From positions 199,770 to 263,769 of the forward strand of contig CAKOMG010000002.1 of NCBI GenBank assembly GCA_934096585.1: a DNA stretch of 64,000 bases, in the 5' to 3' direction. The DNA comes from an uncultured Bacilli bacterium. GTDB taxonomy: Bacteria > Bacillota_I > Bacilli_A > ML615J-28 > CAG-698. The notes below the pieces were generated by a model. It saw nothing but the letters and a program-made list of their open reading frames with translations, searched no databases and had not been told where the DNA came from. The first letter of the stretch is position 1. The number at the start of each line of letters is the position of its first letter. This document shows, one piece after another, positions 25,304 through 43,515 of this stretch. The translations under genes and the position numbers were made by a program.

Positions 25304-28300
25304 AATGGATCAATTTAAGATTGAAAATTTTAAAGAAAATATTAATTATGTAATTGAAGCTTCAGCGGGAACGGGAAAAACATATAATATTATTGAAATA
25401 GTAAAAAAACTTCTTCAAGGTAAAAATATTAAATTAAATGATATTTTAATAGTAACATATACAGAAAAGGCAGCAGGTGAATTAAGAGATAGAATTAGAA
25501 AAGAATTACCAGAAGAAGATGTGGATAATGTACCAATTTTTACAATACACTCTTTTTGTCAAAGCGTAATTAAAGAATTTGGAATTTCTTCTAATTTGCC
25601 ATTAAATCTAAGTTTAGTTGGAAATGATGAATTAAATGAGTTTGCTGATAAATTTATTAGAGATTGTTCATTAATTGATGATATTGCTGAATGCCTTAAA
25701 CAAGGTATAGAAATTAATATAGATACTTTGAAAAACAAATTAGTTGATGGGGTTGATAAGTATTATTTGGATTCTAATTATAATGAAGATAGCGAAATAA
25801 TAGTTATAAAAGATTCTAATGAATTTTTGGATGAGATAAATAAATTAAAAAATAAAAAAGCTAATAAAAGTAATAATGATAAGATTAAAAAAAGTATGAT
25901 TCATTTTTTAAGTTGTAAATACTTAAAGCAACTATACATAGCTTGGCAAAAAGAAAAAGAACTAAATAAAAAAGAATCTTATAACGATATGATTAGATCT
26001 GTTAGAGAAGCAATATTAGATAACAAATGTTTATTGAAAAGCAAATTACAAGAAAAATATAAATATGCAATAATAGATGAATTTCAAGACACTAATCAAT
26101 TACAATTTGATATATTTAGTAATATATTCTTATGTGAAAACCATAATATAATAGTTGTTGGTGATCCAAAACAATCAATATATTCATTTCAAGGAGCAGA
26201 TGTTAATGTTTATTATAAAGCAGTTGATGAGATATTAAAAAAAGGTGGATTGAAATGCTCATTAAATACTAATTATCGCTCAACACAAAATATTGTTACA
26301 TCATGTAATCAATTGTTTAAACATTTTGATTTTGATGGTATGGATCAATTTGAAGAATCTATTTGCCCAACAGATGAAGTACATAAAAGAGAAGTATTAT
26401 TTGATGGTAAAGATATTGAATCATTTTGGATTGGAAATAAAGACCTAAATGATATTGAATACGCAAAAGCAGTAGTTAAAGAAATAATAATTTGTTGCGA
26501 AAAAGATAAAAATGGAAAAACTAGATTGCAATTAAAAAAAGGACCTGAAGAATTTAGAAATGTCAGTTTCAAAGATTTTGCTATTTTAGGAAGAACAAGA
26601 TTGGAAATGCAGGCAATTTGTAATATTTTTAAAAAAGTAGGTATTCCTTTTGTTAAGTATAAGGATTTAAAATTGTTTAATGGAAAAGAATGCGCCGATT
26701 GGAAAGCTATATTTGAAGCAATTGATTGCATTGATTTTACAGGTTCGAATAGAGCAATATTTAAAAAAGCCTTATTCACAAATTTCTTTGGACTTTCATT
26801 GCAAGAGATTGCTGATGAAAAATATAATACAGATGAAAGTGATCAAATGGTATTAATAAGTAAATGGAAATTGATAGCTTCAGAAAAACAATGGGAAGAT
26901 TTAATTGATGACATTTTAGTAAGTTCAAATATTATTGATAGGATGAGTTCTTTAACTAATATCGATTCTATTGGAATATATAAGCAAATTGGTAATTATT
27001 GCGTTGATTATTTAACAAGTAACCATTCCATTAATGATTTAATTAATAAACTAAATGATCTAAGTCAAGGTGAAGAAGATACTGAAGATGGAAATGTTGT
27101 AGAAAGAAGTACAAATTTTGATGCTATACAACTGCTTACAATGCATACATCAAAGGGACTTCAATTTCCGGTAGTTATAGCTGTTGGTGGATTTAAACAG
27201 TTTCCTCCTGAAAAAGGAATAGTAACATATCATAAAGAAAATAAAAAGATATTAGATTTTCAAATTAATGAAGAATTTAAAAAAGAACGTTTAGAAGAAA
27301 CTAAAAGATTATTTTATGTAGCATATACTAGAGCAGAATATATTTTAATGTTTCCTTGTGTAAGCAAATTTATAACAAATAATGATAAAAACTTTATTAT
27401 AGATTCTATTAATCAATATGAAAATAATAATAAATTTAAAAGAATTGATGCTTCAATATTTAATTATAAGGAACTAAAAGAAAAAGTTCAAAATATATTA
27501 AATAAACCAGCTGAAGAATCAAAAGAAGAACGAGTTAAACAAGAAGAAGTACTAAAAACAATTATTAAAGAAAGTAATTCAAAAAAGGTTTACAAACATT
27601 CATATTCTTCTTTATCCCATTCTGGAGTAATTGATGAAGATGACAATAAAGAAGGAGTAGTAATTGGAGGATTATCAAATTTCGATACTAAAGTTGTTTC
27701 TGATAATCCATATTTAAACGAAAGTAATAATGCAATTCAAATGCCAAGTGATTATCCTAAAGGTTCAAACATAGGAACATGTTTACATGAAATTCTTGAA
27801 AAAATAGATTTCACAAATACTAATAATTTGATTTATATTGTAAAAAATAGTTTTAGTAAAAATGGGTTTAAAGATAATGATGAAAAATGGAATGACTATA
27901 CTAAAAAAATAATTGATAATGTACTAAATGCTAAACTTCCGATTATAAAAGGGAATAACATAACTAATGACTATTTATTATTAAGCGAAATACCAAATAA
28001 TTGTAAAAAAAATGAAGTTGAGTTTTCATATAATTTATTAAATGAAAAACTAAAGAATTATTGTAATGGCTTTATTGATTTACTTTTTAAGAATGGTGAA
28101 TATTATTCCATTGTTGACTGGAAATCAGATGGATTAAGTGATGACTTTATTTCATTTTCATCACAAAAAGATTTGCAAGAACATGTTAGTGATTGCTACT
28201 CTATCCAAAGAGTAATATACTCTTATTCATTAATTCAATGGTTAAAATGTTATTATAAAAATGAAACGGAAGAGGAATTGTTTAACAATCATTTTGGTGG

Positions 28301-28430
28301 AATCTATTATATTTTTGTGAGAGGATGCAATGAAGGGACAGGAAATGGAGTATATTGTCAGACATGGAATAATTATAAAGAATTAGAAAATTCATTTAAT
28401 GAAATTATTAATTCTAGAATATGGAGGTAA
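25296..28430 (+). CDS. recB: exodeoxyribonuclease V beta subunit RecB (SF1 helicase + C-terminal PD-(D/E)xK nuclease)
   Basis: EASAGTGKTY Walker A. IIDEFQDTN. VVGDPKQSIY. TMHTSKGLQF. YVAYTRA. C-terminal GFIDLLFKNGEYYSIVDWKSD nuclease motif. Confidence 0.8.
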   Translation: MNKMDQFKIENFKENINYVIEASAGTGKTYNIIEIVKKLLQGKNIKLNDILIVTYTEKAAGELRDRIRKELPEEDVDNVPIFTIHSFCQSVIKEFGISSNLPLNLSLVGNDELNEFADKFIRDCSLIDDIAECLKQGIEINIDTLKNKLVDGVDKYYLDSNYNEDSEIIVIKDSNEFLDEINKLKNKKANKSNNDKIKKSMIHFLSCKYLKQLYIAWQKEKELNKKESYNDMIRSVREAILDNKCLLKSKLQEKYKYAIIDEFQDTNQLQFDIFSNIFLCENHNIIVVGDPKQSIYSFQGADVNVYYKAVDEILKKGGLKCSLNTNYRSTQNIVTSCNQLFKHFDFDGMDQFEESICPTDEVHKREVLFDGKDIESFWIGNKDLNDIEYAKAVVKEIIICCEKDKNGKTRLQLKKGPEEFRNVSFKDFAILGRTRLEMQAICNIFKKVGIPFVKYKDLKLFNGKECADWKAIFEAIDCIDFTGSNRAIFKKALFTNFFGLSLQEIADEKYNTDESDQMVLISKWKLIASEKQWEDLIDDILVSSNIIDRMSSLTNIDSIGIYKQIGNYCVDYLTSNHSINDLINKLNDLSQGEEDTEDGNVVERSTNFDAIQLLTMHTSKGLQFPVVIAVGGFKQFPPEKGIVTYHKENKKILDFQINEEFKKERLEETKRLFYVAYTRAEYILMFPCVSKFITNNDKNFIIDSINQYENNNKFKRIDASIFNYKELKEKVQNILNKPAEESKEERVKQEEVLKTIIKESNSKKVYKHSYSSLSHSGVIDEDDNKEGVVIGGLSNFDTKVVSDNPYLNESNNAIQMPSDYPKGSNIGTCLHEILEKIDFTNTNNLIYIVKNSFSKNGFKDNDEKWNDYTKKIIDNVLNAKLPIIKGNNITNDYLLLSEIPNNCKKNEVEFSYNLLNEKLKNYCNGFIDLLFKNGEYYSIVDWKSDGLSDDFISFSSQKDLQEHVSDCYSIQRVIYSYSLIQWLKCYYKNETEEELFNNHFGGIYYIFVRGCNEGTGNGVYCQTWNNYKELENSFNEIINSRIWR

Positions 28431-30381
28431 TATGAACGAATATAATAATTTAAAAGAACTTGTTATAAAATATAAACTAATGTCTCCTATTTGGAAATAT
28501 GTTTTAGAGTTAATAGAAGAAGAATTAGACTTCAATGAAAATGAACGAGAGTATGTTTTGATATTGTTTATTATCTATTTTTGTTTAATAGACGATGGTA
28601 ATATTTGTATGTTACTTAATAAAAATATATTAAGTGAAAAGTGGAATGAAAAAGTAGAATCAACAATCATAATGCAAAGAAACAAGATGATTGTTGATGA
28701 CACTGAATTAAATACTATCAAAAAATTAACAAACGTAGCTATAAATGATTATTTATCTTTAATTAATAATGAGCATTTAAATAAAGTAATTGGTAAAAAT
28801 AAAGAATTTGAAATAGAAGATGGATGGTTATATTTAAGAAAATATAATATTGCAAGAAAAGGAATAATTAATTCTATTAAAAGATTATTTGATAAAGAAT
28901 ATATAGGAAACCCCCTTTATAATTATAAAGATTATTGTATTAAAAATGTTAATAATGAAAATAACAAAGAATTTAGTTTATCTAAAGGACAAGAGAATGC
29001 GGTAAACAAAGGATTTAATAAGAATTTAATTATTACTGGTGGTCCTGGGACAGGTAAGACGACTTCAATCTTATTTCTTTTAATTAACATTCTTACTTCA
29101 AATCTTGAAAGTAATGTTTATTTAATTGCACCAAGTGGAAAAGCTGCCAGTAGAATGAAAGAGAGTATAATAAAGGGATTATCATTAGTAAATGAAGAGT
29201 TTAAAAATAAAAATTATGATTTAATTGATAAAATAAATAAACTAGAGGAATCTACTATTCATAGATTATTATCTTATGATTATGAAACAAATAGTTTTTT
29301 ATACAATAAATATCATCCATTTAATCAAGATTCAATATTTGTAATTGATGAAGCTAGTATGATTGATATATGTTTATTTAATTCCCTATTAGAAGCAGTC
29401 CCTGATAATGCAAGAATATTTATTATGGGAGACAAAAATCAGTTACCTTCAGTAGAGTGTGGTGCAGTATTTGGTGAATTCCTAAAAATGAATGAATTAA
29501 AAGATAATATTATTGAACTAGATGAATCAATAAGGTTTAAAAAAGGAACAAAGATATATGAATTTGCGCAAGCAATTAATCAAGGAAATACTCTACCTAT
29601 ATCCAATGATGAGTTCAAGGAATTGAAAGACTTTACAATATATGAAGAAAATAATAATAAACCAATTTATTTCTTTAACTATAATGATTCAAAACAAGAT
29701 TTTGATAGTGTAATAAAAAAATGGGGTAATAAATATTATAAAAACCTTCAAATGAAATGTTCAAATCTTGATTATAACAATAGTGAATCTTTTAATGAAC
29801 TTTTTAGTTTAATAGAAGAATCAAAAATACTATGTGCTGAAAATGATGGTATTTATGGAGTTAAACAAATCAATAATATAATAAAAAAGAACTATGTTAA
29901 CAATTCAATAATTTCATATAATGGTCACTATCCTGGAGAAATTATGATGATTAATAAAAATAATAAAACATTAGATCTTTATAATGGTGATTCAGGAATC
30001 CTAGTTACTTTTGAAAATGACAATACTTTATATTTTATGATTAAAAAATCATCTACATTAGTAAATACAGATGAAAAGAAAAATAACAAAGTATTTAAAA
30101 AGGAACAGTATGTATTTTATCCATTAAGATTAATATCGTTTAATGAAATTGATTTAGCTTATGCAATTACTATTCATAAATCTCAAGGATCAGATTATAA
30201 AAATATTCTAGTGATATTACCTAAACAAAAAGGACATCCTTTACTTAATAGACAAATTGTTTATACTGCTATTACAAGAACAAAAGGAAATACATATATA
30301 ATTTCAAATCTTAATCGTTTAGAAGAAGCAAAAGACAATTTAATTATTCGCGATACTAACATAGCTAGTTTTAACGGTTGA
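28399..30381 (+). CDS. recD: exodeoxyribonuclease V alpha subunit RecD
   Basis: ITGGPGTGKTT. VIDEASMID. AITIHKSQGSDY. TAITRTKG. Overlaps the recB end by 32 nt. Confidence 0.8.
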   Translation: MKLLILEYGGNMNEYNNLKELVIKYKLMSPIWKYVLELIEEELDFNENEREYVLILFIIYFCLIDDGNICMLLNKNILSEKWNEKVESTIIMQRNKMIVDDTELNTIKKLTNVAINDYLSLINNEHLNKVIGKNKEFEIEDGWLYLRKYNIARKGIINSIKRLFDKEYIGNPLYNYKDYCIKNVNNENNKEFSLSKGQENAVNKGFNKNLIITGGPGTGKTTSILFLLINILTSNLESNVYLIAPSGKAASRMKESIIKGLSLVNEEFKNKNYDLIDKINKLEESTIHRLLSYDYETNSFLYNKYHPFNQDSIFVIDEASMIDICLFNSLLEAVPDNARIFIMGDKNQLPSVECGAVFGEFLKMNELKDNIIELDESIRFKKGTKIYEFAQAINQGNTLPISNDEFKELKDFTIYEENNNKPIYFFNYNDSKQDFDSVIKKWGNKYYKNLQMKCSNLDYNNSESFNELFSLIEESKILCAENDGIYGVKQINNIIKKNYVNNSIISYNGHYPGEIMMINKNNKTLDLYNGDSGILVTFENDNTLYFMIKKSSTLVNTDEKKNNKVFKKEQYVFYPLRLISFNEIDLAYAITIHKSQGSDYKNILVILPKQKGHPLLNRQIVYTAITRTKGNTYIISNLNRLEEAKDNLIIRDTNIASFNG

Positions 30382-30408
30382 AAATTAGAAAGTGAATTTG
30401 ATATAATA
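30371..30408 (+). promoter_or_regulatory. promoter cassette copy 2
   Basis: -35 TTGAAA at 30378-30383 (overlaps the recD stop), 18-nt spacer, TGATATAAT at 30399-30407. Confidence 0.6.
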
Positions 30409-30413
30409 TTAGT

Positions 30414-30630
30414 GTAATTAAATAATCATAATTAAATATACCTTCCTAAATTTAACAAGGCTGATATACCCTTGTAATAAAGTATATCTAAAAATGAATA
30501 ATAAAATAATCCATAAAGAGATGGCGAGAGACAAGCTCAATGACCCATCAGCAACTTACAGTAAAATGCAAAGTGCTAAAGCTTGAACGATGGAATCAGT
30601 GAAAGGCTTCCATCATAGAAGCCTTTTTTG
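30414..30630 (+). ncRNA. candidate ~215-nt structured ncRNA (class unknown) or an unusually long terminated leader
   Basis: No ORF. Locally GC-enriched with multiple hairpins (acaagg-loop-ccttgt; gatgg-loop-ccatc). Ends in the intrinsic terminator aggcttc-catcata-gaagcct + TTTTTT. Confidence 0.45.
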
Positions 30631-30670
30631 ATTATTAACATATAATTAGTTATAAAAGGAAAAATTGTTT

Positions 30671-31240
30671 ATGAAATGTAAATTTGTTTTGCAAAGTTGT
30701 AATATACTTAAAAAAAATAGTAAAAAAAGAAAATTGATTTATGTGAATGACTATTTTGTTTTTAATTTAACAAAAACATATAAAGACATTATTGACGAAT
30801 ATATAGATGAAGGTATGATTATTATTAAAAAAAGTTGTTCATATAAGTTAGTAGAAAAAATACTTTTAGAAAATAAATATATCTACCGGCCAAGCTTATA
30901 CTATTTAAAATACAATAGAAAGTATAGTTTAAGAAGCATTGTTTATATGATTAAAAAACCAAATATTTTGAATGATAAACTATTTATAGAAAAAATAAAA
31001 GTATTATTAAAACAATCAGGTTGTAAATCAATACTATTTATAAATAAAACTCAGGAAGTTTATATTGATTTAAAAAAGAATAAAAATAAATGTAAAGAAA
31101 CAAATAAAAAAAGACTTTATAAAAAATATAAAGGCGTTCTTATACCATGCTATGGAATTTATCTATATAGAAATAATCATTATTCAATAGATAGTGGTGA
31201 ATTTCAAGCAGGTTTTAGATATAGGTATACACGTTTTTAA
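30671..31240 (+). CDS. hypothetical K-rich protein
   Basis: RBS aaaaggaaaaa precedes the ATG at 30671; the track starts at an upstream TTG. Confidence 0.45.
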   Translation: MKCKFVLQSCNILKKNSKKRKLIYVNDYFVFNLTKTYKDIIDEYIDEGMIIIKKSCSYKLVEKILLENKYIYRPSLYYLKYNRKYSLRSIVYMIKKPNILNDKLFIEKIKVLLKQSGCKSILFINKTQEVYIDLKKNKNKCKETNKKRLYKKYKGVLIPCYGIYLYRNNHYSIDSGEFQAGFRYRYTRF

Positions 31241-31271
31241 CTAAGTAAAAGGTAAAATAAGGTGACAGAGT

Positions 31272-31310
31272 TTTAACGGTTGAAAAAAAATTAGTGAATT
31301 TGATATAATA
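31272..31310 (+). promoter_or_regulatory. promoter cassette copy 3
   Basis: -35 TTGAAA at 31280-31285, 18-nt spacer, TGATATAAT. Drives the FtsH-like operon. Confidence 0.6.
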
Positions 31311-31335
31311 GTATTATAAAAACAGGAGAAAAAAT

Positions 31336-32577
31336 ATGGAGCAATTTAATAAAATTATAGGATATGAAAATGTAAAAAAAGAATTAATTACAATTAGTGA
31401 TTACTTTAATAAAACGGATTTATGTAGACAACACAATGTTAAGTTACCTAAAGGAATTCTTCTTTATGGGGATTCAGGATGTGGTAAAACATTATTTTTA
31501 AAAGAATTTTGTAAGGTAACTAATAAATATGTAATAAATGTTCAAGGATGCAGTGATGATATAATTAAAGAAATTAGCGATGATTTTAAAGAAGCACGTG
31601 TTATAGGAAATACTGTAATAATTATAGATGAGTTAGACTTACTAATAAACAAAGATTATAGAATAGTTAGATTGTTGCAATCATATTTGGATGGATTTGA
31701 AGATTATGATGGAATTTTTGTAGTAGCAACAACTAATAATGTTGGAAAAATAGAAAATTCATTATTAAGAGAGGGGAGATTTGATAGAAAAATTAAAGTA
31801 GATTTACCAAATGAAAAAACAAGAAAGGAATTAATTGATTATTACATAAGACAATTAGGTCTTGATGTAAATGTTGATTCTGAATATTTATCAAAAATCA
31901 TGGTCGATAGATCTTGCAGTTTTATTCAAACAATTATTAATGATTGTTATTTGAGATTTAATCAAAACATTACAACTGATAATATTGATTATTCATATAA
32001 TGTTATTGCATATGGAAACACAAATGATTATATAAAAAATGATATAAATAAAACAATAGCCATTCATGAAGCAGGACATATTGCCTTAACATATAAAAAT
32101 AGAAAGTATTTTACTTTTTATAAAGCATCAATTAACACAAATTCAAATAAAATAAATGGAGTTTCAAAACTTTATGATGCAAAAGAACAAAATGATGATT
32201 TAGAAGAGTATATCGCAAAAATTGAAATTGATATTGCAGGTTTTTTAACAACATACAATTTACTAAAAATAAAAGATGGAGGTTCTTATGGAGATTTAAA
32301 AGATGCTATTTATAATGCAAGATTTTTAATCAATAGTTTAGGATACAAAATGCCAAGAAATGTATTGAGAGAATATGACCAATTTGAGGGTAGAAATGAA
32401 ACAGAAATTAACTGTCATCGCAATGAAATTTTCGTGAGAAAATTGATGAAAAAATGTGAAAGAAATGTAAAAAAATACATTATTAAAAATAAAAAGAAAA
32501 TATATGATATAGCAAATCAATTGTATGAAAGAGGATCAATTAAACAAAATGAAGTAATGGAAATAATGGAGAGGTAA
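31336..32577 (+). CDS. soluble FtsH-like protease: AAA+ ATPase fused to an M41-type HExxH metalloprotease. No transmembrane N-terminus
   Basis: Walker A GDSGCGKT. Walker B IIIDELD. Sensor-1 VVATTNN. REGRFDRKI. Protease motif TIAIHEAGHIAL. Confidence 0.7.
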   Translation: MEQFNKIIGYENVKKELITISDYFNKTDLCRQHNVKLPKGILLYGDSGCGKTLFLKEFCKVTNKYVINVQGCSDDIIKEISDDFKEARVIGNTVIIIDELDLLINKDYRIVRLLQSYLDGFEDYDGIFVVATTNNVGKIENSLLREGRFDRKIKVDLPNEKTRKELIDYYIRQLGLDVNVDSEYLSKIMVDRSCSFIQTIINDCYLRFNQNITTDNIDYSYNVIAYGNTNDYIKNDINKTIAIHEAGHIALTYKNRKYFTFYKASINTNSNKINGVSKLYDAKEQNDDLEEYIAKIEIDIAGFLTTYNLLKIKDGGSYGDLKDAIYNARFLINSLGYKMPRNVLREYDQFEGRNETEINCHRNEIFVRKLMKKCERNVKKYIIKNKKKIYDIANQLYERGSIKQNEVMEIMER

Positions 32578-32580
32578 AAA

Positions 32581-34257
32581 ATGAAAATAAAAAGAAAAAA
32601 TAAAGAAAAAGAAGAATTTATAGAAAACTATAAGAACTATTTAATAAATAATTGGGAAATGATTAAGGATTATGTAACTAATCGTACTATGAATATTAAA
32701 GTGAATAAGGAATGCTGGCCTGAAGATTTTCTACCAAATAATTATTTTTATGAAAAGAAAGGGTTCAATGAGATTACAAAATATAATAAAATACCAATAT
32801 ATCAATTGCTTTATTTAAATGGTATGGATGATATGTTTCAAATCGATAAATATGGAGCTATATTTTATTTAAGTGCTATAAAAAAGATTAATAATTCATC
32901 AAAATTGATTCTTGAGCCACTTGATAATAGAAAAAAATTATATGATGATTATGATTATAATTTGTTTATTAATTATAATAGTTATAATAGTTTATTTATG
33001 GGTTTTAGTGAAGAAGAAATCAAAAATAGAATAACAGATGGTTTAATAATTAAAGTGATTGACAATCATTTAGAATTTGAAAAGTATTTTAAATTAAATG
33101 ATTATGATCTTGGCGAATTACAGACAACAGAATTGCCTAGAGTAGCATCTAGATTAATAAAAAATAATAAATTTAATGACTTATCTATTTTAGAAAAAGA
33201 TGAAATCAATAAAATAAATTATTATGATTTTTTAAAAAAAATTTATAATTATGTTTCAAATATTGATGAACAAGAATTGAATGATATATATAAGAAGAGT
33301 TTATCTTTATTTTGTGATATTTGTTTGATTGCTTTTATTTTTATGTCTAAAATTGTTTATTTAAATAAAGTTAATGGCAAAACAAGAAAGTTTAATTATA
33401 AACTTTTCGATGATGAGAATAATGAAATTCTTTCAAAAACAGTTGATAATATTAGTCCATTTTTTATAAAAAATGAGATAATTAATTATGAATATAAAAG
33501 TAAACTAAAATTAGAAGGATTAAATTTTGAAATACAAGAAATTATAGATTATAAACAAAGAATATTAGATGATATGCTAGAAGAATATGTTAATTTGTTA
33601 GGAATGGATGGTGCAGTAAATAAAGCAAAAACATGGGATAATAGAGTAATACATTCGATTGCACATTCATTGATTTATCATTGCAAGGATCCTGAAACTC
33701 GATACAAGGCTATTGATGTATCTATAGAGTTGGTTAAACTTAATATTGATAACTTTATAAACAAAACTATATTTGGATGTTCTAGAGTTGATTATTATTT
33801 TATTTTAGAAGATATCACATTGATAATTGATGTATTATTAGACTCTAACATTCTTTCAACGCATAACTGTAGAAAGTATTTTAATATACCTAATGATTAT
33901 CATTATGATAATTTGTTAGCATTTGAATATTTGAAAAAGGGATATAAGCTGGTTTTACGATTCGGCGTAAATTATAAATTAATGTATTTATATGGATTAA
34001 TTTTATACAAAGAAATTTTTACAAAGAATACTAAAGAAGAAGGTTTACAAATCATAAAACAATATAATGAGCATTTAGAACATGACTTTGATGTCGCTTT
34101 AGCAAGGTATTGGCATTATTTGAAAGATGAAAAAAACTATGATAATGAACAATCGATTCAAGCATATATAGATAATAAATTAGAAAAGGTTGAAAAAATT
34201 AAACATGATTATTACGCCAATTGTAGTCAATGGAAAAATAGTAGCTCAAATTTATGA
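32581..34257 (+). CDS. hypothetical 558-aa protein, co-operonic with the FtsH-like gene (3-nt gap)
   Basis: ORF with RBS. No recognisable motif. Confidence 0.5.
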   Translation: MKIKRKNKEKEEFIENYKNYLINNWEMIKDYVTNRTMNIKVNKECWPEDFLPNNYFYEKKGFNEITKYNKIPIYQLLYLNGMDDMFQIDKYGAIFYLSAIKKINNSSKLILEPLDNRKKLYDDYDYNLFINYNSYNSLFMGFSEEEIKNRITDGLIIKVIDNHLEFEKYFKLNDYDLGELQTTELPRVASRLIKNNKFNDLSILEKDEINKINYYDFLKKIYNYVSNIDEQELNDIYKKSLSLFCDICLIAFIFMSKIVYLNKVNGKTRKFNYKLFDDENNEILSKTVDNISPFFIKNEIINYEYKSKLKLEGLNFEIQEIIDYKQRILDDMLEEYVNLLGMDGAVNKAKTWDNRVIHSIAHSLIYHCKDPETRYKAIDVSIELVKLNIDNFINKTIFGCSRVDYYFILEDITLIIDVLLDSNILSTHNCRKYFNIPNDYHYDNLLAFEYLKKGYKLVLRFGVNYKLMYLYGLILYKEIFTKNTKEEGLQIIKQYNEHLEHDFDVALARYWHYLKDEKNYDNEQSIQAYIDNKLEKVEKIKHDYYANCSQWKNSSSNL

Positions 34258-34399
34258 AAGTGATGAAGAAATAATAGTTAGAGACAATTTGTTTAATGCA
34301 TTATATGGATATGATAAAGTAAATAATTATACCTTTGATAGCAATCATGAAAAAGTATGTAATGGAAATATTTTGAATCAAATAATAAAAATAGAATAA
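34190..34399 (+). CDS. small protein with YD-repeat-like segments (low confidence; the real start is probably internal)
   Basis: YGYDKVNNYTFDSNHEKVCNG resembles the downstream paralogue. Overlaps the 3' end of the 558-aa gene out of frame. Confidence 0.3.
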   Translation: MKKLNMIITPIVVNGKIVAQIYESDEEIIVRDNLFNALYGYDKVNNYTFDSNHEKVCNGNILNQIIKIE

Positions 34400-34413: not shown

Positions 34414-34599
34414 ATGGATGAAATTTTAAAAGATAGATATGGGCATAAAATAGGAACAATAAAAGAAGTGGGAAATAAATTGTATATTTATGATGAACAT
34501 GGTCATAAAGCAGGATATTATGATCCAAATACAAATAAGACATATGATGAACATGGTCATTTTGTTGGAACTGGAAATTTATTAACTTCATTGATATAA
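34414..34599 (+). CDS. 61-aa YD-repeat-like small protein
   Basis: RBS AAAGGAG precedes the ATG. Three degenerate repeats: RYGHKIGTI, YIYDEHGHKAGYYDPNTNKT and YDEHGHFVGTG. Confidence 0.5.
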   Translation: MDEILKDRYGHKIGTIKEVGNKLYIYDEHGHKAGYYDPNTNKTYDEHGHFVGTGNLLTSLI

Positions 34600-34638: not shown

Positions 34639-34668
34639 TGCTATCTTTAAAAGCTTTACTTATGTAGA
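34639..34668 (+). terminator. probable intrinsic terminator (A/U-rich stem)
   Basis: aaaagct-loop-agctttt followed by TTTT. Confidence 0.4.
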
Positions 34669-34961
34669 GCTTTTTTTTGTATAAAAAATACAATTTTTTA
34701 ATTTTCATTATTTTTTTATTGCATATAATCGAATACTATGATATAATAAGATTAACTAGAAGAGGTTATTTTTTTCAAAGTATTTGAGTAATGTAATTTT
34801 CTTATTGCTTTTTCGCAAAAGTTTTAAGAGGAAAATATTACAACTATTATTTTGACGAATGAAACCTTATTTATAAGGATTAGTCTATCTAAAAATAGGC
34901 TATCTTTAATCATAAGGTTTTTTTCTTTTTCTAGTAATACATAAAAAGGAGAAAGAAAAGT

Positions 34962-35774
34962 ATGAGAAAAAATTTGAATGATTATTTTGAAAGTGTGGAA
35001 AGAAAAATTGGCTATGAGTTTGAAAATGAAGATTTGTTAAGACAAGCATTTACTAGAAAATCTTATAGTTCAATTTATGGAACTGAAAATAATGAAGTAT
35101 TGGAATTTATTGGTGATAAAGTAATTGATTTGATTGTAGTTAAAGTTATTTCTGATTATTTTGGATTCTATAAATCAGAATCAGCTTATTATGATGAAGA
35201 TAATGATTTAAATGAGTTTTGTATTGTTGCTAATAAAGATGAATCTGATTTTACAGAAATAAAAAAAGAATTAGTATCAAATGAAAACTTGTCAAAAATA
35301 ATTGATAAATTAGATTTTGCAAAATTAATGTGGATGGGAGATAACGACATCAATAATCATATTGAAAAAGAGCAAAAAGTTAAAGCTGATTTATTTGAAG
35401 CAATAGTTGGTGCAATAACCATAGATTGTGATTGGAATATGGAAATATTGGAAGAGGTTATAAAAAGATTATTATATATTAATAATACACTGAAAAATGT
35501 TTCTACGGAAGAAGAAAGACCAGAAAAATTTACTGTTGAAAAAGCAATTAACACATTAAAAGAGCTTGCTGAACAAGGAAAATGTTCTGAACCTATATAT
35601 GAAATATCAGATGAACAAATATTTCAAGATGGAGAATATTGGTGGTCTTGTGATTGCACTGTTAATAGTTGGCATATTTCAGAAAGTGCACTTTCTAAAA
35701 GTAAAAAAGGTGCTAAAAAGTATACTGCTTATTTAGTTCTATGCACTAGATATAATCTAGATGTCGAGGAATAA
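34962..35774 (+). CDS. class-1 RNase III paralogue (catalytic domain with ~45-aa insertion, plus C-terminal dsRBD)
   Basis: RKIGYEFENEDLLRQAFTRKSYS. NEVLEFIGDKVID (E/D catalytic). ADLFEAIVGAITID (D/E catalytic). dsRBD-like SKKGAKKYTAYLVL. Confidence 0.75.
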   Translation: MRKNLNDYFESVERKIGYEFENEDLLRQAFTRKSYSSIYGTENNEVLEFIGDKVIDLIVVKVISDYFGFYKSESAYYDEDNDLNEFCIVANKDESDFTEIKKELVSNENLSKIIDKLDFAKLMWMGDNDINNHIEKEQKVKADLFEAIVGAITIDCDWNMEILEEVIKRLLYINNTLKNVSTEEERPEKFTVEKAINTLKELAEQGKCSEPIYEISDEQIFQDGEYWWSCDCTVNSWHISESALSKSKKGAKKYTAYLVLCTRYNLDVEE

Positions 35775-35777
35775 ATT

Positions 35778-36338
35778 ATGGAAAATTCACAAATTGAAGT
35801 GTTAAAGAAAAAGTATTCTCAAATAATTGATGATTTAATTAAAGTAAATAAGAAGTTTTATAAGCTTAATTATGAAATAAAATGGATTTTTATCTTTGAT
35901 GAAAATGTGGCAAATGTTTGTGCTTTTGATGCTAAGAAAGGTATAATAAAAATAAATGTGGTGACAGTTGCTTATTCTTATGAAAATAATCAACCTTTAT
36001 TTATTGAGTGTTTTCTATTACATGAAATAAGACACTTTTATCAACAATTAATAATTAATGAGTACTTAAGAAATCCAAATGAATGTATAAATAGTGTTAT
36101 TGCACAACAATGGCTTTTTGAAAAGAAAAATTATATTAAGCCTCTTGATGAAAATGGGCACTTAAATGTAAATTATTACCTACAGGACATAGAAATTGAT
36201 GCTTTTTCGTTTTCATATGCCGTTATAATATATAAATATGGTGATTTAAAATATCTTAAAATACCAAGTGCTTATCAAAATGAATATTTTAAAGAACAAT
36301 TGAATACTTGGATTGAACTATTTAAAAAAGAACAATAA
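35778..36338 (+). CDS. small HExxH protein (putative zincin-like metallopeptidase, ImmA/IrrE- or SprT-like), coupled to the RNase III gene
   Basis: CFLLHEIRHFYQQ. 4-nt intergenic gap. Confidence 0.5.
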   Translation: MENSQIEVLKKKYSQIIDDLIKVNKKFYKLNYEIKWIFIFDENVANVCAFDAKKGIIKINVVTVAYSYENNQPLFIECFLLHEIRHFYQQLIINEYLRNPNECINSVIAQQWLFEKKNYIKPLDENGHLNVNYYLQDIEIDAFSFSYAVIIYKYGDLKYLKIPSAYQNEYFKEQLNTWIELFKKEQ

Positions 36339-36360
36339 ATATGTTCCGATGCTAAATTTA

Positions 36361-36589
36361 TTAATCCACGACTAGGTTCTTGGAAAAAAGATGTTTATGA
36401 GTTAATAGATAAAAAATGGGTGAGTATTTTAATCTGCAAAATATTTATGACTATGAGAATTATCTTAAAAATTTATATCCATCAAATAATAACATAAGGC
36501 CTAAAATTAGACAAGTTCTACAGCAACTTCGAGATATAGGACTTATAAAATTTCTTGGATCAGGGTCTTATAAAAAATTAATAAAATAA
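36361..36589 (+). pseudogene. frameshifted gene remnant (about 75 codons across two frames)
   Basis: Frame A reads NPRLGSWKKDVYELIDKKWVSIL. Frame B continues NLQNIYDYENYLKNLYPSNNNIRPKIRQVLQQLRDIGLIKFLGSGSYKKLIK*. No start codon or RBS. Confidence 0.4.
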
Positions 36590-36673
36590 TAGTCTTAATT
36601 CTTTTGCTTAGTATTTTTTAACCATATAACTAATATTATTAATGTATTTTATTATTATGTAAGGAGACTAAAA

Positions 36674-36997
36674 ATGAAAAAAACAATTTTAGCTATTATA
36701 TTATTTTTCATATTACTATTTATTGCTGGCGGATGTACTGCTGTCTTTCAAGGAGTAGAAGCGCTATGGCAAGCTATTATAGGATTTTTACCTATTTTTA
36801 AACCTGCCATTGAACAATCATTTAAAGATTATTTTACTTCTGCATACTTTATTGTTGGTGTAATAATTTTTATAGGTTCACTTTTTGGTATTACAATAAA
36901 CGTAAAAAATAGACATGTTTTATATGTGTTGATTTCTACAATACTGACTATTATTTCTTTATTAAGTATTATTACTAATTTGGTGGTGTGTAAATAA
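36674..36997 (+). CDS. small membrane protein (3 TM)
   Basis: Hydrophobic 107-aa ORF with RBS AAGGAGA. Its stop abuts the next ATG. Confidence 0.5.
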   Translation: MKKTILAIILFFILLFIAGGCTAVFQGVEALWQAIIGFLPIFKPAIEQSFKDYFTSAYFIVGVIIFIGSLFGITINVKNRHVLYVLISTILTIISLLSIITNLVVCK

Positions 36998-37495
36998 ATG
37001 AAAGAAAATGCTATATTATTATTAATAAAAGAAATTAAAAAAAGTTTAGAATCAGGAAATTATTTATCCGCATTAATTGTTGCATTAACAATTCCAGATA
37101 TTTGTGGGAAAATATTATATCCAAAAGAAACGAATGGTAAAAGATATAAAAAATGGTTTGACAAATATATTGGTGATTACAAAAATAGTCCGATATATAA
37201 GGATTTACCTGAATGCATAGGATGGACTAACATGAATGGCGAAAAATTTTATGCATTAAGATGTGCTATGCTTCATGAAGGCTCAGATGATATTGTTGAT
37301 AAAATCAAAATAGACAAATTCAACCTTTATTATGGAAACAATTCTATCATCGAAAAACATTGTGTTGAGTATAGAGAAGATTCCTTATTTGATGGTTCAG
37401 TAATAGAACATCCTAAAATTGAATCATTAGATATTAACGTATATGAAATATGTCAAAAAATAATTTTAGCTGCTAATTTTTTTTTTAAAAAATGA
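36998..37495 (+). CDS. hypothetical protein, coupled to the membrane protein
   Basis: The ATG follows the upstream TAA directly. Confidence 0.5.
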   Translation: MKENAILLLIKEIKKSLESGNYLSALIVALTIPDICGKILYPKETNGKRYKKWFDKYIGDYKNSPIYKDLPECIGWTNMNGEKFYALRCAMLHEGSDDIVDKIKIDKFNLYYGNNSIIEKHCVEYREDSLFDGSVIEHPKIESLDINVYEICQKIILAANFFFKK

Positions 37496-37747
37496 AGTTG
37501 ATGATTTATCAAAGCTCCCAACAATTCAATACAATCTTGGTATACCTTCAATATTTTTATCAAATACTAATTTAAAATAAATATAAAAAGAAAGCAATAA
37601 TTCTATGGATAATCAATCCATAATGATTATTGCTTTTTATTTTAGCTTATTAAAATTAATTTATATATTTTAAATAAATAGTTAAGTTTAAAAAATGAAA
37701 AAAAGATTCATAACTAAATGGTATACTATTAAAAAAAGGAAGGTAAA

Positions 37748-38707
37748 ATGATGGAATTAATCAAAGATTATAGAAATTTAGAAAATGGTTGGAATGGTGG
37801 ACTTTCAGAAGCATATGTTTGTTGTTTAAATCTAATTAATAATAAAAAGGTAAATAATATACTTTTTGATAAAAAACTTACAACAAAAATTCTTGATAAT
37901 AATTATTATATGCTATTACAAATAGTTTTGAAAGAAATTAAAAAATTATTACCTCAAGGGAATGGTAATAAATATATATATGAATGTATAGATTTAGATC
38001 AATTAAACAAGGAATGTGGTAAAAAAATGATTCCAATAGTTGATGAAATTCGAATAAAATATTATTGTGTTATCATAAGAAATATTATTAGTTATTTGAG
38101 TTCTGAAATTGAATTATTTAAAAAGTTAGAAAAAAAGACAGAAGAAGAAAGAAATAAACTGCTAGAAGAAATGGAAAGATATATAATAAGTTATTTTAAT
38201 GTATTTGAAAATCTTCCAAAACAAAATAGTAAAAAAAGTCGTAAAAATGACAATAATAAAAAAGAAACTGTTGAAGATAAAATAATTAATGAGTATATTG
38301 ATCAACTTAATGCATTCGAACAAAAGCCATTTGATCAATATGATTCTTTTGAAAATTACGTTGAAGAAACAATAACTGTTAAAAATAATATTGAAGAAGG
38401 AATTGAAAAAATTAATAGAAATCTTATTAAAAACAGTGTTGAAATAAATGAATTTGCTGAAAAGTATGAAATTAAAGTTGAAGAAGTTGAAAGAATCTTT
38501 ACTAGTGACAATTTTAAAACCTCATTAAGCAATAATCCAGTTGTTGATTGTTATAATTCATATATAAATGAAAATATTATAGGCGAATTTATAAATTTCT
38601 TTGGTCAACTTTTTTCATTTGAATTTAATGATAATTTAGAGGCAAATATTCCAGATTTATTTGAAACTCGTTCACAATACTATCATGGTAAATATAGAGA
38701 AAATTAA
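37748..38707 (+). CDS. hypothetical protein (coiled-coil-rich)
   Basis: ORF with RBS AAAGGAAGG. Confidence 0.5.
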   Translation: MMELIKDYRNLENGWNGGLSEAYVCCLNLINNKKVNNILFDKKLTTKILDNNYYMLLQIVLKEIKKLLPQGNGNKYIYECIDLDQLNKECGKKMIPIVDEIRIKYYCVIIRNIISYLSSEIELFKKLEKKTEEERNKLLEEMERYIISYFNVFENLPKQNSKKSRKNDNNKKETVEDKIINEYIDQLNAFEQKPFDQYDSFENYVEETITVKNNIEEGIEKINRNLIKNSVEINEFAEKYEIKVEEVERIFTSDNFKTSLSNNPVVDCYNSYINENIIGEFINFFGQLFSFEFNDNLEANIPDLFETRSQYYHGKYREN

Positions 38708-38728
38708 TCAAATTTTGAGTAAAGTTAT

Positions 38729-41700
38729 ATGAATAATATAGAAAGAATAGTTAATATAATAAAAGAAAAGATAAAAAGCAATCCTATAATTTTATTTAAT
38801 TGCTTTTTTACTGAGAAGATGCTATATGAATTATTAGTTGAAGAAGCAATTGATGAAAGAATCTTTTATTACATGATGTTTTTATATGACTTTGGATATG
38901 TTTCTGATGTGATATTTAAAAATAAAGATATTGCAATAAATAATATTAAAAATAAGAATAATGAATCGCAACTACCAATTCAAGAAATTAATTATTGGAA
39001 TTTAATCTTATCTGATGAAATAATTAAATGCATTAAGGAAACACATTTTAATGAACGAAAGTTAAATGAAAATGTTGGTAAAATTATATTTTTGAATGAA
39101 CCTTCATTTAATGATTCAAATTATTCAGGTGTTGATGGTGAATATGAAATTTATAAAGAACTAAAAACTTTTAATGATCAAAAATATAATGATTTTTTAT
39201 ATGCAAATTATAGAGTTAAAATACATAATAAAGATTATGAATCTGATTTTATAATAGTTTCAAATAATGTCATAATAATTATTGAAGTTAAAAATTGGCA
39301 TGGAGAGATTACAATCGATAAGTATGGTAATATTACAACTAATGGTTCTTTAGGATATAAAAATCCAATTTCTCAAAATAATAGACATGTTAATGATTTA
39401 AGAACTTTTCTTATAAATAAATTTGATATTGATATTCCTATTAAATCTGTAATAGTTTTTGGCAAAAAGTCACATGTGATTAATATTGATAAAGAATATA
39501 ATAGGGACACTGAAATAATTAATTATGATGAATTGAATTATTTTATACAAAAAACTATTCATAATGATGAAAATAAAAAGATTTTTGATAATAAAATCAT
39601 ATCATCATTCATTAATGTGTACAACAGTTTCGATAACACAAATTATATTTTTTATCCTGAAGATTTTATTAATTTAGAATTAGCAAATGAGTATTATAAA
39701 TATCAAGAAGTTGTTAAAGATTCAAATTATAAAAAAGGTAAAAAAATATTTCACTATTCAATAGATTCTACTAATAGGCAATTAGAAAATGATATGAATA
39801 CTATTTATTTTGATAAAATCATTAAATATAATATTCGTTTTAATGATGATATTAAGTATAATTGTTTTATAATCAATAGCTTTTTAAAATTCAATGTTAA
39901 ATGTAGATTTAAATATGCAAATTTAATTGCTGTAATTTATAATTATTTGCTTAGAAATAATGAAATAGATTCTTCATTAGATATACCTTTATTTATAAAT
40001 CATTATGATTATAATAATATTACAGATATAAGAGAACAATATCCTAAAATATTTAAATTAATGATAGTTATACTATTGCTTATTAAAAATAATTATTTTA
40101 CATTAAATGAAATGAATATTGAAATACCTTTTTTTATAGAAGATAAATATGAAAGTTTATTAACTATAGCAATCAAATGCTTGAATAATTATTTAGAAAA
40201 AATTTCATTATTAACCATAGGTAAAATATTAAAATTAAAAATTCAAGATGATGAATCATATGAAGTAGGATTTGAAAAAGATTCTAATTTGGATATTATG
40301 ATTTTAGATTATAATAATAAAAAATTCTCACAAGAAATCGAAGAAAATTCTTTATGGATTGAAGATAATATTAGATATAATATAAACGACAAAAATGATT
40401 ATATTTTAATTGATTTTTTAAAAGAATTTACACCTTTTACAGCATTTAAAGAAGGGCAATTAGATTTTATAAAAAATATTCTCAATTTTCCAACAAACAA
40501 AATTGTAATTATGCCTACGGGAAGCGGTAAATCATTAATATATTATTTTTGTGCAATTTTACAACCGAAAGTAACATTTATTGTTTCGCCTAACGATATT
40601 TTGATTAGTAATCAAATAAATAATTTAAAGAAAATTCATAGATATACTAATGTAGTTAAATTAAGTTATAAAACAAAAATAGGCTTAAATCAAATAATTT
40701 ATTCTACACCTATTATTTTACAAGAGGATTCACTTATTAGAGACATAATAGATTGTGACAACATATATAGTTTTGTTTTAGATGAAGTTCATTGTTTATC
40801 TTTCCTAAGTCATAATTTTAGACCAGAATATTTCACATTATCATCTAAACTAAATATGTTTTTCAAAAAGACATTATCTTTGGGTTTTACCGCAACTTCT
40901 GATTACGAAGTTACAAAAGATTTAGCAAAACAATTAACAATTAATTTTTCAGAACAGGATATCTTGGAAAATATAAATATGAGAACAGATAGGCTTTCAT
41001 ATGATATTAGATGTTATGATACAAGGGAAGAACAGTTAATTGCTTTGTTTGAATTATCCAAAAGGATTAGTGTACTTAAGAATATTGTTTTTGTAAAAGA
41101 TGAAAAAACAGCAAATGAAATATTTAAAATAATAGGAACAAATAAAAGTTTAATTTTTTCACAAGATGATCAGGGTGTCTTAGATTTATTTATAGATTTA
41201 AATAGTGGTTTTAATTTTTTAATTTGTGGATATGAATTAGGGATAGGATTAGATTTAGGTAATATCAGCAATGTTATACATTTTGGAATTCCTTACTCAA
41301 AAATGGATTATGTTCAACAAATAGGTCGTGCAGGAAGAAATGGAGAATATTGTAAATCTTACGTATTATATTTAAATCAACAGAAATTTGAATCCTATTT
41401 ATTTGATAGAAATTTAGAATACGATTCATTTATTAGTAAATTAATTGCAGATGAAAAAAACGATTATACAATGAGTTATTTAAATATATTTAAAAAATTT
41501 TTAAATTATAATAAACAAAAGAAAGAATTTAAAAATATTCTATTACAAGTTATGGAAGATTATTTTAATCGCGGATTTACTACTACCATTTTGACTGAAA
41601 ACAATGATTTCTGTTTTTATATTTTACAAGCACTTGGAATTATATCATACTGGGGAAAAAATAAAAATCAAGTGGTACTTTGCTTGAATAAATTAAATAA

Positions 41701-42442
41701 TATTAGTTTAATTAAAAATAACTTTCGAACATACATGTCTATTATTGGAAATAATGATATGAATGAAAAAATATCTTATTGCAATGATATGACTAAATTA
41801 GCATTATTATTTTATGATGTTTTTGTAGAAAACTACATTATTTCTAAAAGAAACCAAGTGTTTGAACTTCTAGAAATGTTAGAAAGATATAAAGACCAAA
41901 TGAATGTTTCAAATGAAATTAATTCAGAAATTGAGAATTTTTTTGCATTGCCTTTTATGCGTGTTTCTAAATGTGAAAATTGGATAAGAAAAGTCCCTTT
42001 AATGGATATTAACTCTAATATTTTATCTTTTAATTCAGACGATATAGATAATATTATCAATGTCGTTGATTTAATAAATTATGCAACACCTAGTGTTTAT
42101 TACTTAAAACTATTGCGAGAATATGTAAATAATAGTGAAATAAAAGATTTTACAAATAAGATTGAACAGATTTGTAATAAATTAGATTCATACAATATTT
42201 TTAATTTATTTATATCTTTTGGTGATGTTTTAAAAAAATTATCGAGCAATGAAAAAAAGAATTTTGATAATTATTTATTACAAGTTTTATCTATGATGTC
42301 AAATTTAATTTCAATAGATAATTTTAATGTGATGTCAAAAAAATATATAAATAATTTATCAATTGAATCAAATAAATACTATGCATTAGCTATTTATTTT
42401 GACGAATATATTAAAAAAATGAGGAAAGATAAAAATGGATGA
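38729..42442 (+). CDS. NERD-domain / RecQ-family SF2 helicase fusion protein (1237 aa)
   Basis: NERD-like DFIIVSNNVIIIIEVKNWHGEI. RecQ motif I MPTGSGKSLIYY. Motif II VLDEVHCLSFLSHNFRPEY. Motif VI QQIGRAGRNGEY. Confidence 0.7.
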   Translation: MNNIERIVNIIKEKIKSNPIILFNCFFTEKMLYELLVEEAIDERIFYYMMFLYDFGYVSDVIFKNKDIAINNIKNKNNESQLPIQEINYWNLILSDEIIKCIKETHFNERKLNENVGKIIFLNEPSFNDSNYSGVDGEYEIYKELKTFNDQKYNDFLYANYRVKIHNKDYESDFIIVSNNVIIIIEVKNWHGEITIDKYGNITTNGSLGYKNPISQNNRHVNDLRTFLINKFDIDIPIKSVIVFGKKSHVINIDKEYNRDTEIINYDELNYFIQKTIHNDENKKIFDNKIISSFINVYNSFDNTNYIFYPEDFINLELANEYYKYQEVVKDSNYKKGKKIFHYSIDSTNRQLENDMNTIYFDKIIKYNIRFNDDIKYNCFIINSFLKFNVKCRFKYANLIAVIYNYLLRNNEIDSSLDIPLFINHYDYNNITDIREQYPKIFKLMIVILLLIKNNYFTLNEMNIEIPFFIEDKYESLLTIAIKCLNNYLEKISLLTIGKILKLKIQDDESYEVGFEKDSNLDIMILDYNNKKFSQEIEENSLWIEDNIRYNINDKNDYILIDFLKEFTPFTAFKEGQLDFIKNILNFPTNKIVIMPTGSGKSLIYYFCAILQPKVTFIVSPNDILISNQINNLKKIHRYTNVVKLSYKTKIGLNQIIYSTPIILQEDSLIRDIIDCDNIYSFVLDEVHCLSFLSHNFRPEYFTLSSKLNMFFKKTLSLGFTATSDYEVTKDLAKQLTINFSEQDILENINMRTDRLSYDIRCYDTREEQLIALFELSKRISVLKNIVFVKDEKTANEIFKIIGTNKSLIFSQDDQGVLDLFIDLNSGFNFLICGYELGIGLDLGNISNVIHFGIPYSKMDYVQQIGRAGRNGEYCKSYVLYLNQQKFESYLFDRNLEYDSFISKLIADEKNDYTMSYLNIFKKFLNYNKQKKEFKNILLQVMEDYFNRGFTTTILTENNDFCFYILQALGIISYWGKNKNQVVLCLNKLNNISLIKNNFRTYMSIIGNNDMNEKISYCNDMTKLALLFYDVFVENYIISKRNQVFELLEMLERYKDQMNVSNEINSEIENFFALPFMRVSKCENWIRKVPLMDINSNILSFNSDDIDNIINVVDLINYATPSVYYLKLLREYVNNSEIKDFTNKIEQICNKLDSYNIFNLFISFGDVLKKLSSNEKKNFDNYLLQVLSMMSNLISIDNFNVMSKKYINNLSIESNKYYALAIYFDEYIKKMRKDKNG

Positions 42443-43451: not shown

Positions 43452-43470
43452 TATACAAATTTATTTATAA

Positions 43471-43515
43471 AGACAATAATTTTTAAATGGTAATCATTAA
43501 ATTATTGTCTTTTTT
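43471..43515 (+). terminator. rho-independent terminator
   Basis: 12-bp perfect stem agacaataattt/aaattattgtct followed by TTTTTT. Confidence 0.7.

Follow-up and report, generated by a model that had tools for sequence, protein, structure and literature searches.

This study concerns a 64,000-nucleotide (nt) stretch of DNA from an uncultured Bacilli bacterium (contig CAKOMG010000002.1, positions 199,770 to 263,769; hereafter the window) and, within it, an operon that encodes a 413-amino-acid (aa) FtsH-like protease and a 558-aa orphan partner. An earlier reading of the letters alone (hereafter the sequence-only reading) had described the protease as a soluble relative of FtsH without the membrane anchor, and had placed the pair under a repeated strong promoter in an island of defence-like genes. 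The unit runs in the order promoter, protease, partner, two small paralogous open reading frames (ORFs) and terminator:

31271-31309, plus strand: promoter-like element with an upstream TTTTAACGG box, a -35 TTGAAA, an 18-nt spacer and a TG-extended -10 TATAAT

31336-32577, plus strand: anchorless FtsH-like protease, 413 aa, with an AAA+ module and an M41 zinc-peptidase domain

32581-34257, plus strand: orphan partner, 558 aa, predicted to be all-alpha-helical

34205-34399, plus strand: small ORF, 64 aa (69 aa from a TTG at 34190), overlapping the 3′ end of the partner gene by 53 nt

34414-34599, plus strand: small ORF, 61 aa, with YD/GH-rich hairpin-like repeats and a Shine–Dalgarno sequence (AAGGAG) upstream; last gene of the unit

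34649-34674, plus strand: intrinsic-terminator-like hairpin with a T-run; no earlier terminator follows the protease promoter

Textbooks describe FtsH-type proteases as unfoldase-proteases anchored in the membrane. The 413-aa ORF carries all of the motifs first listed for it (GDSGCGKT, IIIDELD, VVATTNN, REGRFDRKI and IAIHEAGHIAL) and matches both Pfam AAA (PF00004; E value of 5.3e-20, residues 41-156) and Peptidase_M41 (PF01434; 1.5e-07, residues 234-410, 32.0 bits against a cut-off of 29.9), which bears out its assignment as an FtsH-like protease with AAA+ motifs and an M41 zinc site. It is laid out as an AAA+ module that includes the lid (approximately residues 1-230), followed by the M41 zinc-peptidase domain (approximately residues 234-410). 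Walker A (G45-T52), Walker B (D98/E99), sensor-1 (N134) and the arginine fingers (R145/R148) are in place, as is the HEAGH of the zinc site (244-248). The third zinc ligand was assigned to D320, which aligns with the aspartate of the FtsH GAxxD motif, the third zinc-binding residue of published FtsH structures. The gene has a Shine–Dalgarno sequence (AGGAG) 8 nt 5′ of its ATG, and its ratio of non-synonymous to synonymous substitution rates (dN/dS) against a sister strain is 0.16. The AlphaFold 2 model of the monomer has a predicted local distance difference test score (pLDDT) of 86.8.

The anchor is missing, as had been proposed from the sequence: Walker A lies only 44 residues from the N terminus, leaving no transmembrane or periplasmic region, the highest 19-residue Kyte–Doolittle hydropathy is 1.11, against 2.22 for the first transmembrane segment of a canonical FtsH (P0097), and a Pfam scan of the protein gave no match to PF06480. 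The FtsH equivalog model TIGR01241 aligns end to end over the cytosolic part and scores 128.4 bits against a cut-off of 600; the corresponding figures for NF008004 are 70.1 and 1008. No canonical ftsH was found within the window.

This architecture recurs. A search of 5.8 billion proteins returned approximately 40 clusters of 410-470-aa AAA plus M41 proteins that share the short N terminus; almost all are metagenomic, and the few named ones are annotated 'AAA family ATPase'. Relatives of the window protease occur in 16 GTDB species, at 29-35% identity, all of them gut or rumen Bacillota (uncultured Bacilli, Erysipelotrichaceae, Anaeroplasmataceae, Enteromonas and Oscillospiraceae). A cultured relative, WP_042258768.1, is encoded on the megaplasmid pCY186 of Butyrivibrio proteoclasticus. 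With at least 40 clusters of this length and N terminus, and a TIGR01241 score of 128 against 600, the protein is a cytoplasmic paralogue and not the membrane FtsH, in agreement with the sequence-only reading. The anchorless family of gut and rumen Bacillota proteins of approximately 410-470 aa is so far uncharacterised; a literature search for an anchorless, pore-loop-less M41 family found no paper.

The family-wide loss of both pore loops, with all catalytic residues kept, is our most solid new result, along with the linkage to WYL-domain regulators described below. Aligned with canonical FtsH, the window protease has an 8-residue gap at pore loop 1 (EFVEMFVGVGA in FtsH) and a gap of approximately 14 residues after Walker B, which corresponds to pore loop 2. 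We ran a motif-spacer script over all M41-containing hits, comparing 40 anchorless proteins with those of at least 460 aa. In the anchorless proteins the spacer from Walker A to Walker B is 41-49 residues (41-45 in 39 of the 40) and that from Walker B to sensor-1 is 31-39 (31-35 in 37 of the 40), whereas in the longer proteins the spacers are 47 residues, with a (K/M)[YF]VG motif, and 39-42 residues. None of the 40 has a pore-1 motif at the pore-loop position; the one match to the pattern [FYW][VILMA]G among them, a YVG in P0002, abuts Walker B. One exception among the longer proteins, P0111, has a deleted spacer of 24 residues and no pore-1 motif. In the model of the window protease, only 6 residues separate strand 65-69 from helix 76-90.

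By contrast, the catalytic machinery is intact. Residues G45, G48, G50, K51, N134, R145, R148, H244, E245, H248 and D320 are invariant in 15-21 members at 25-60% identity, and D98 and E99 (Walker B) and D119 (DGF motif) are invariant or nearly so across anchorless members. ATP hydrolysis, subunit communication and peptide-bond cleavage therefore appear to have been kept under selection. Because the pore loops are lost and the ATPase and protease residues are kept, members of the family probably hydrolyse ATP and cut peptides, yet are probably unable to thread substrates as FtsH does. The retained arginine fingers and DGF motif suggest that the window protease forms an oligomer. With the pore loops lost, the mechanism to expect is that of a non-threading protease instead of an FtsH-like unfoldase, a point absent from the sequence-only reading.

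The window protease shares its domain order (AAA+ module, then lid, then M41 peptidase) with FtsH, YME1 and AFG3L2 (MEROPS M41), and Walker A and B, sensor-1, the DGF motif, the arginine fingers, HExxH and the aspartate ligand are conserved among them. The fold is also shared: Foldseek template modelling scores (TM-scores) of the protease model are 0.83-0.85 to FtsH (3kds), YME1 (6az0) and AFG3L2 (6nyy), and a profile of the anchorless family matches FtsH 6gcn over residues 4-411 (E = 2.9e-66). The differences from FtsH lie in the missing N-terminal transmembrane and periplasmic region, in the deletion across the anchorless family of pore loop 1 (aromatic-hydrophobic-glycine; MFVG/KYVG) and pore loop 2, in an identity of the window protease of only 23-25%, below the TIGR01241 cut-off, and in distribution; the anchorless family is patchy and accessory, whereas FtsH is a universal essential gene.

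A mirror image is found in the chloroplast FtsHi proteins of the Ycf2-FtsHi motor (Foldseek matches 8xku and 8xqw), which likewise form a paralogue family derived from FtsH and have given up one of its two original activities. In FtsHi the protease site is gone and the pulling motor remains; in the anchorless family, conversely, the protease site and the ATPase residues remain, and the pore loops and the membrane anchor are gone. The family thus offers a natural separation-of-function variant in which all catalytic residues of ATPase and peptidase alike were kept while the anchor and both gripping loops were discarded, and it raises the question of what purpose ATP hydrolysis serves in an AAA+ protease unable to thread. 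A compact, soluble protein of approximately 410 aa is suited to structural work on this point.

The partner gene begins exactly 3 nt after the protease stop codon (taa aaa atg) and has GGAGAGG upstream of its start; it is translationally coupled to the protease through this gap and its own Shine–Dalgarno sequence. The sequence-only reading was right about this 3-nt pairing with a large protein of no assigned function (32581-34257), for which we detected no relatives outside its own lineage. Among 5.8 billion proteins, a word-indexed search retrieved nothing beyond the 100% and 90% clusters of the partner itself, an exhaustive phmmer search of 1.84 billion representatives returned only the query, and no homologue was found in a scan of JGI metagenome contigs. 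Pfam, PADLOC, PHROGs and NCBIfam gave no domain match even at an E value of 10, and a three-sequence profile compared with the PDB gave chance coiled-coil matches only. The single-sequence AlphaFold 2 model is all-helical, with a pLDDT of 36.6. We considered whether the partner is a diverged WYL regulator; an hhalign probability of 0.2-0.3% rules this out.

Some features of the partner are nonetheless held constant. Helix 241-261 is strongly hydrophobic (Kyte–Doolittle value of 2.19) and bears an invariant CxxC (C245 and C248), and there are an invariant H358/H362 pair and a conserved YLYGLxLYKEI segment. The helix may span the membrane, or it may lie buried in the core and bind metal. The dN/dS of the partner against the sister strain is 0.27.

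In one diverged lineage (locus L004), a protease 59% identical to that of the window is followed, after the same 3-nt gap, by a partner ORF (538 aa or longer) with 34% identity over 520 residues (E = 5e-88). The partner diverges faster than the protease at both depths, with identities of 90.1% against 97.6% in the first case and 34% against 59% in the second. All 23 loci of more distant relatives lack it, so the protease and partner are not the conserved unit of the family. Conservation of the pair thus stands in part: the arrangement recurs in one diverged lineage, and the partner is missing from the 23 other loci.

The wider family has other neighbours. Among the 23 further loci of relatives, 19 have enough flanking sequence to be informative, and 15 of these 19 encode a winged helix-turn-helix WYL (wHTH-WYL) regulator within 6 kb of the protease gene. 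One cluster of these regulators (c1) matches Pfam WYL/WCX; another (c2), with no Pfam match, is homologous to it (hhalign 98.9%, E = 1.6e-17). Regulators of the wHTH-WYL-WCX type, such as BrxR and CapW, co-localize with and control phage-defence systems and sense single-stranded DNA (ssDNA) (PMC9122601, PMC11662680). Genes for ADP_ribosyl_GH, Macro or NADAR proteins are present in six relatives' loci, HAD_SAK_2 in three and NUDIX in three; RtcB with a PrfH-like RF-1, TIR, Fic, GmrSD, Mrr and AddAB-like genes each occur at a single locus. Together, the WYL regulators and the ADP-ribose-removing neighbours suggest, by guilt by association, an inducible role of the family in conflict or damage responses. 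If so, the linkage would represent an unrecognized inducible proteolytic arm of such responses in gut Bacillota.

The presence of a WYL regulator near the relatives is a likeness to WYL (BrxR/CapW)-regulated defence modules such as BREX and CBASS (PMC9122601, PMC11662680), from which the window locus differs in having no WYL gene (none was found at 27-39 kb of the window). Because of this, the WYL-based inference is not directly extendable to the window locus. We found no M41 protease in the described WYL-regulated systems (no such term occurs in PMC9122601), and a literature search on an M41-WYL link found nothing relevant.

Clusters in which an anchorless protease keeps company with such neighbours (WYL regulators, ADP-ribosyl glycohydrolase, Macro, NADAR, HAD_SAK_2, NUDIX and RtcB/RF-1 genes) come from loci L005, L006, L009, L010, L011, L013-L015 and L017-L026. 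In three loci an unannotated gene for a small protein (134-150 aa; cluster c13) lies between the protease and WYL genes. At L010 (10162-15811), AddAB-like genes lie directly downstream of the protease relative; with the RecBCD-type genes of the window, this makes two independent adjacencies of the protease family to an end-resection nuclease.

From the observed domain content, retention and loss of motifs, fold, operon layout, conservation and gene neighbourhoods, we propose that the locus encodes an accessory, ATP-regulated, non-threading zinc protease together with a lineage-specific helper, an explanation to which we give slightly less than an even chance. The protease would derive from the cytosolic part of FtsH and, judging from its motifs, is most likely still an ATP-binding, ATP-hydrolysing hexamer. 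Because it has lost the anchor, together with the pore loops by which FtsH, YME1 and AFG3L2 take hold of substrates and pull them, we infer that it does not unfold substrates processively; ATP would instead gate or switch the limited proteolysis of targets that are unstructured or presented to it. The partner would most likely be a specificity or regulatory subunit, acting as an adaptor or sensor that presents or withholds a target, or it may itself be the controlled substrate. The neighbours in the wider family point to a conflict or stress role induced by damage or infection, rather than to housekeeping proteostasis, and such a defence or stress role is plausible for the window locus from its context.

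Several points weigh against this explanation. Loss of the canonical pore loops is no proof that translocation is lost, as other residues or a partner could substitute for them. The role given to the partner is pure inference, with no homologue, no domain and no usable structure (pLDDT of 36.6) behind it. No experiment and no match to a known system ties the anchorless family to defence, and the locus in the window has no WYL regulator of its own. Some relatives are located on megaplasmids among replication genes, which fits maintenance of a mobile element equally well. The block to which the pair belongs is conserved rather than variable among the sampled strains, so it could serve a function of the species core.

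A more specific possibility, suggested by the sequence-only reading, is a two-component defence system of the abortive-infection or toxin-like kind, in which a phage cue would be sensed by the partner and the protease would act as the effector or switch one on; in a variant of this idea, the partner is a pro-toxin and cleavage frees its hydrophobic helix. We regard this as possible but unlikely. It is plausible from the context and is not the sole reading of that context. The placement in an island between recCBD and defence-like genes, given by the sequence-only reading, holds: the guanine-cytosine (GC) content is 18-25% over approximately 3-45 kb of the window, compared with 27-31% in the flanks, and the island encodes an R.Pab1 endonuclease, a RecBCD-type trio, an RNase III-like protein, a NERD-DEAD helicase, DUF2806 and DUF2971 proteins, and UvrD- and RecD-type helicases. 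Homology among strains ends at 34677-34682, 3-8 nt past the terminator of the protease unit, and resumes at 43684; the 9-kb slot between (34683-43683) differs among the three strains compared, with different small gene sets in its place in the two other strain types. The locus therefore stands beside a strain-variable defence slot. However, the block is itself fixed in all strains seen. It comprises five genes (189/191, 413, 558, 64 and 61 aa), is carried on at least 13 contigs from several gut metagenomes and shows 96-97% nucleotide identity in every strain sampled; only the slot to its right varies. Faster evolution of the partner than of the protease (90% against 97.6% and 34% against 59%), the hydrophobic partner helix (2.19) and the link of the wider family to WYL regulators typical of defence systems also favour a defence function, but the pair is confined to one narrow lineage, no toxin domain was recognized, and a strong consensus promoter argues against a highly toxic product.

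Precedent for an AAA ATPase and a protease in defence comes from IetAS, in which the AAA ATPase IetA and the subtilisin-like protease IetS form a plasmid-stabilizing toxin-antitoxin system with anti-phage activity, the mechanism of which is unknown (PMC13069673). As in IetAS, a classical-clade AAA ATPase and a protease are encoded here in a small accessory operon, but the two functions reside in one polypeptide rather than in two separate proteins, the protease is a zinc M41 enzyme rather than a serine S8 enzyme, and the second gene is an unrelated orphan. Against PADLOC-DB v2, the partner had no match and the protease had only weak AAA-level matches, to IetA (1.5e-15) and TRIP13, so that no catalogued defence system was matched. 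The IetA match, the sole likeness to a PADLOC family, is confined to the C-terminal half of the AAA module and the lid; the NCBIfam model IteA_antiphage (NF042959) scores the protease at 42.9 bits against a cut-off of 510, and Pfam and PADLOC detected no IetS or S8 protease in the partner or the small ORFs. Should the pair in the window be confirmed as a defence module, the known repertoire would gain a type based on a metalloprotease.

Somewhat more doubtful is the suggestion that the protease is a regulatory or repair-linked enzyme of a damage-response regulon, in this lineage co-regulated with RecBCD through a shared promoter, and that it removes particular proteins (for example repressors, ADP-ribosylated or otherwise modified proteins, or stalled complexes) once DNA or RNA has been damaged. 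Two features lie directly upstream of the unit:

22472-30381: RecBCD-type trio, encoding RecC-like (943 aa), RecB-like (1044 aa) and RecD-like (660 aa) proteins, directly upstream of the protease block

30369-31240, plus strand: upstream neighbour, with a promoter copy (30369-30407), an S-adenosylmethionine (SAM)-I riboswitch (30508-30596), a terminator (30601-30627) and a 191-aa ORF (30665-31240)

The protease promoter, TTGAAA-18-TATAAT at 31280-31309, matches 11 of 12 consensus positions and has an extended -10 TG. Approximately 40 nt of it (TTTTAACGGTTGAAA...TTTGATATAAT) are repeated, nearly identically, at 21988-22026 and 30369-30407, so that the copies precede the recC-like operon (21988), the SAM riboswitch gene (30369) and the protease operon (31271). 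Three occurrences in the window compare with 0.24-0.34 expected, and none of 100 shuffles reached three; the repeated strong promoter of the sequence-only reading is real. With its TTTTAACGG box, the three-copy element may act as a shared operator, in which case co-regulation with RecBCD would follow. The same promoter sequence before the recC-like and protease operons fits a common regulon, but the repeat may be just a strong promoter without a shared operator. The AddAB-like genes directly downstream of the relative at L010 fit this suggestion too, although RecBCD or AddAB adjacency is seen in two lineages only. RtcB, the PrfH-like RF-1, HAD_SAK_2, ADP-ribosyl glycohydrolase, Macro and NADAR among the relatives' neighbours are consistent with damage responses, as are WYL regulators of the CapW and DriD types, which sense ssDNA (PMC11662680, PMC12041258). 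There is, however, no known substrate, and the orphan partner is left unexplained.

The upstream neighbour adds a second potential input. The riboswitch matches the full SAM-I model (RF00162, positions 1-108) at 56.9 bits against a gathering threshold of 44.4, and the terminator at 30601-30627 forms its expression platform. It is also present in locus L001 (56.2 bits), where the riboswitch and the 191-aa ORF are separated by an inserted IS200-like element (Y1_Tnp). A terminator scan found two in 4.9 kb, compared with 0.3 expected. As there is no terminator between the 191-aa ORF and the protease operon, read-through is possible, and low SAM might also raise transcription of the protease operon in this way. 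The riboswitch neighbour is conserved with the block in all strains but not in the diverged L004, which lacks the 191-aa gene. With no homologues outside its species, this orphan ORF is unusual cargo for a SAM riboswitch, inside a defence-like island. The riboswitch, like the two small ORFs and the terminator at 34649-34674 in the protease unit itself, is absent from the sequence-only reading.

If these inputs are real, a broader and distinctly speculative scheme, which we consider improbable, can be drawn. The anchorless, pore-loop-less hexamer would be the effector of protease-based immune or stress modules not previously described, with the 558-aa protein as its sensor or adaptor, and would be wired to RecBCD and to SAM in this lineage. 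The state of RecBCD would be read out through the shared promoter or operator and that of SAM through riboswitch read-through, so that proteolysis would be set off when a phage attacks RecBCD or deploys a SAM lyase. The same engine would be switched on by ssDNA-sensing WYL regulators in other lineages.

It is very unlikely that the partner is the missing membrane anchor, with its helix tethering the protease and thereby re-creating a split FtsH for membrane-protein quality control. Helix 241-261 does equal the first transmembrane segment of FtsH in hydropathy (2.19), and the two genes are tightly coupled. But the helix has an invariant aspartate inside its CxxC motif, to which L004 adds a glutamate and an arginine, and its flanks are basic on both sides; moreover, most members of the family have no such partner, and an enzyme without pore loops could not extract membrane proteins.

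A decaying, 5′-truncated or mis-called fragment of housekeeping ftsH with no function of its own has next to no probability, despite an M41 Pfam score barely over threshold (32.0 against 29.9 bits) and a low FtsH equivalog score, and is ruled out by a full-length ORF with its own promoter and Shine–Dalgarno sequence, the dN/dS of 0.16, a confident full-length model, catalytic residues that are all invariant across at least 40 clusters of the same short architecture and the presence of members in 16 GTDB species.

Two further connections of the preferred non-threading protease were considered and rejected. FtsH-like genes of jumbo phages (the Pseudomonas phage PA5oct group) likewise encode AAA plus M41-like proteins on mobile genomes, but they share only 24-26% identity over 81% of the query and belong to a different clade (phrog_30773, a 666-position profile). 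As no close relatives of the window protease were found in INPHARED or IMG/VR, we reject a phage origin of this clade. The 'FtsH ternary systems' of Kaur et al. (Aravind lab) are also unconnected, as they combine tandem FtsH-type AAA modules with MoxR and vWA and have no M41 domain (PMC7159879).

The two small ORFs at the end of the unit are paralogues of one another (BLASTP, 7e-05) and are called in all strains. Against the sister strain, the 64-aa ORF has two non-synonymous differences and one synonymous difference and the 61-aa ORF has six and none, and with differences that are mostly non-synonymous their coding status is uncertain. They have no assigned family, and placement among the beta-flower proteins was unsupported (Pfam Bflower_2, E = 0.053; BLASTP to a Bflower protein of locus L003, E = 0.21).

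The low-GC region as a whole (approximately 3000-45000) looks like one large defence or variable island. It also encodes UvrD/AAA_30 helicases, a UvrD helicase fused to topoisomerase zinc ribbons (3586-6429) and an ATPase_2 protein; the R.Pab1 restriction endonuclease lies at 19592-20365 on the minus strand. In the window, the variable slot encodes an RNase III-like protein of 270 aa, a 186-aa protein with a HEIRH (HExxH) motif, a 107-aa membrane protein, a 165-aa phrog_18591 protein, a 319-aa protein of no assigned function and a 1237-aa NERD plus DEAD helicase (PADLOC PsyrT, 2.4e-36; DpdF-like) with a 338-aa partner. In the other strains, the same slot holds either genes of 85 and 117 aa or a 57-aa gene and a DUF3800 gene.

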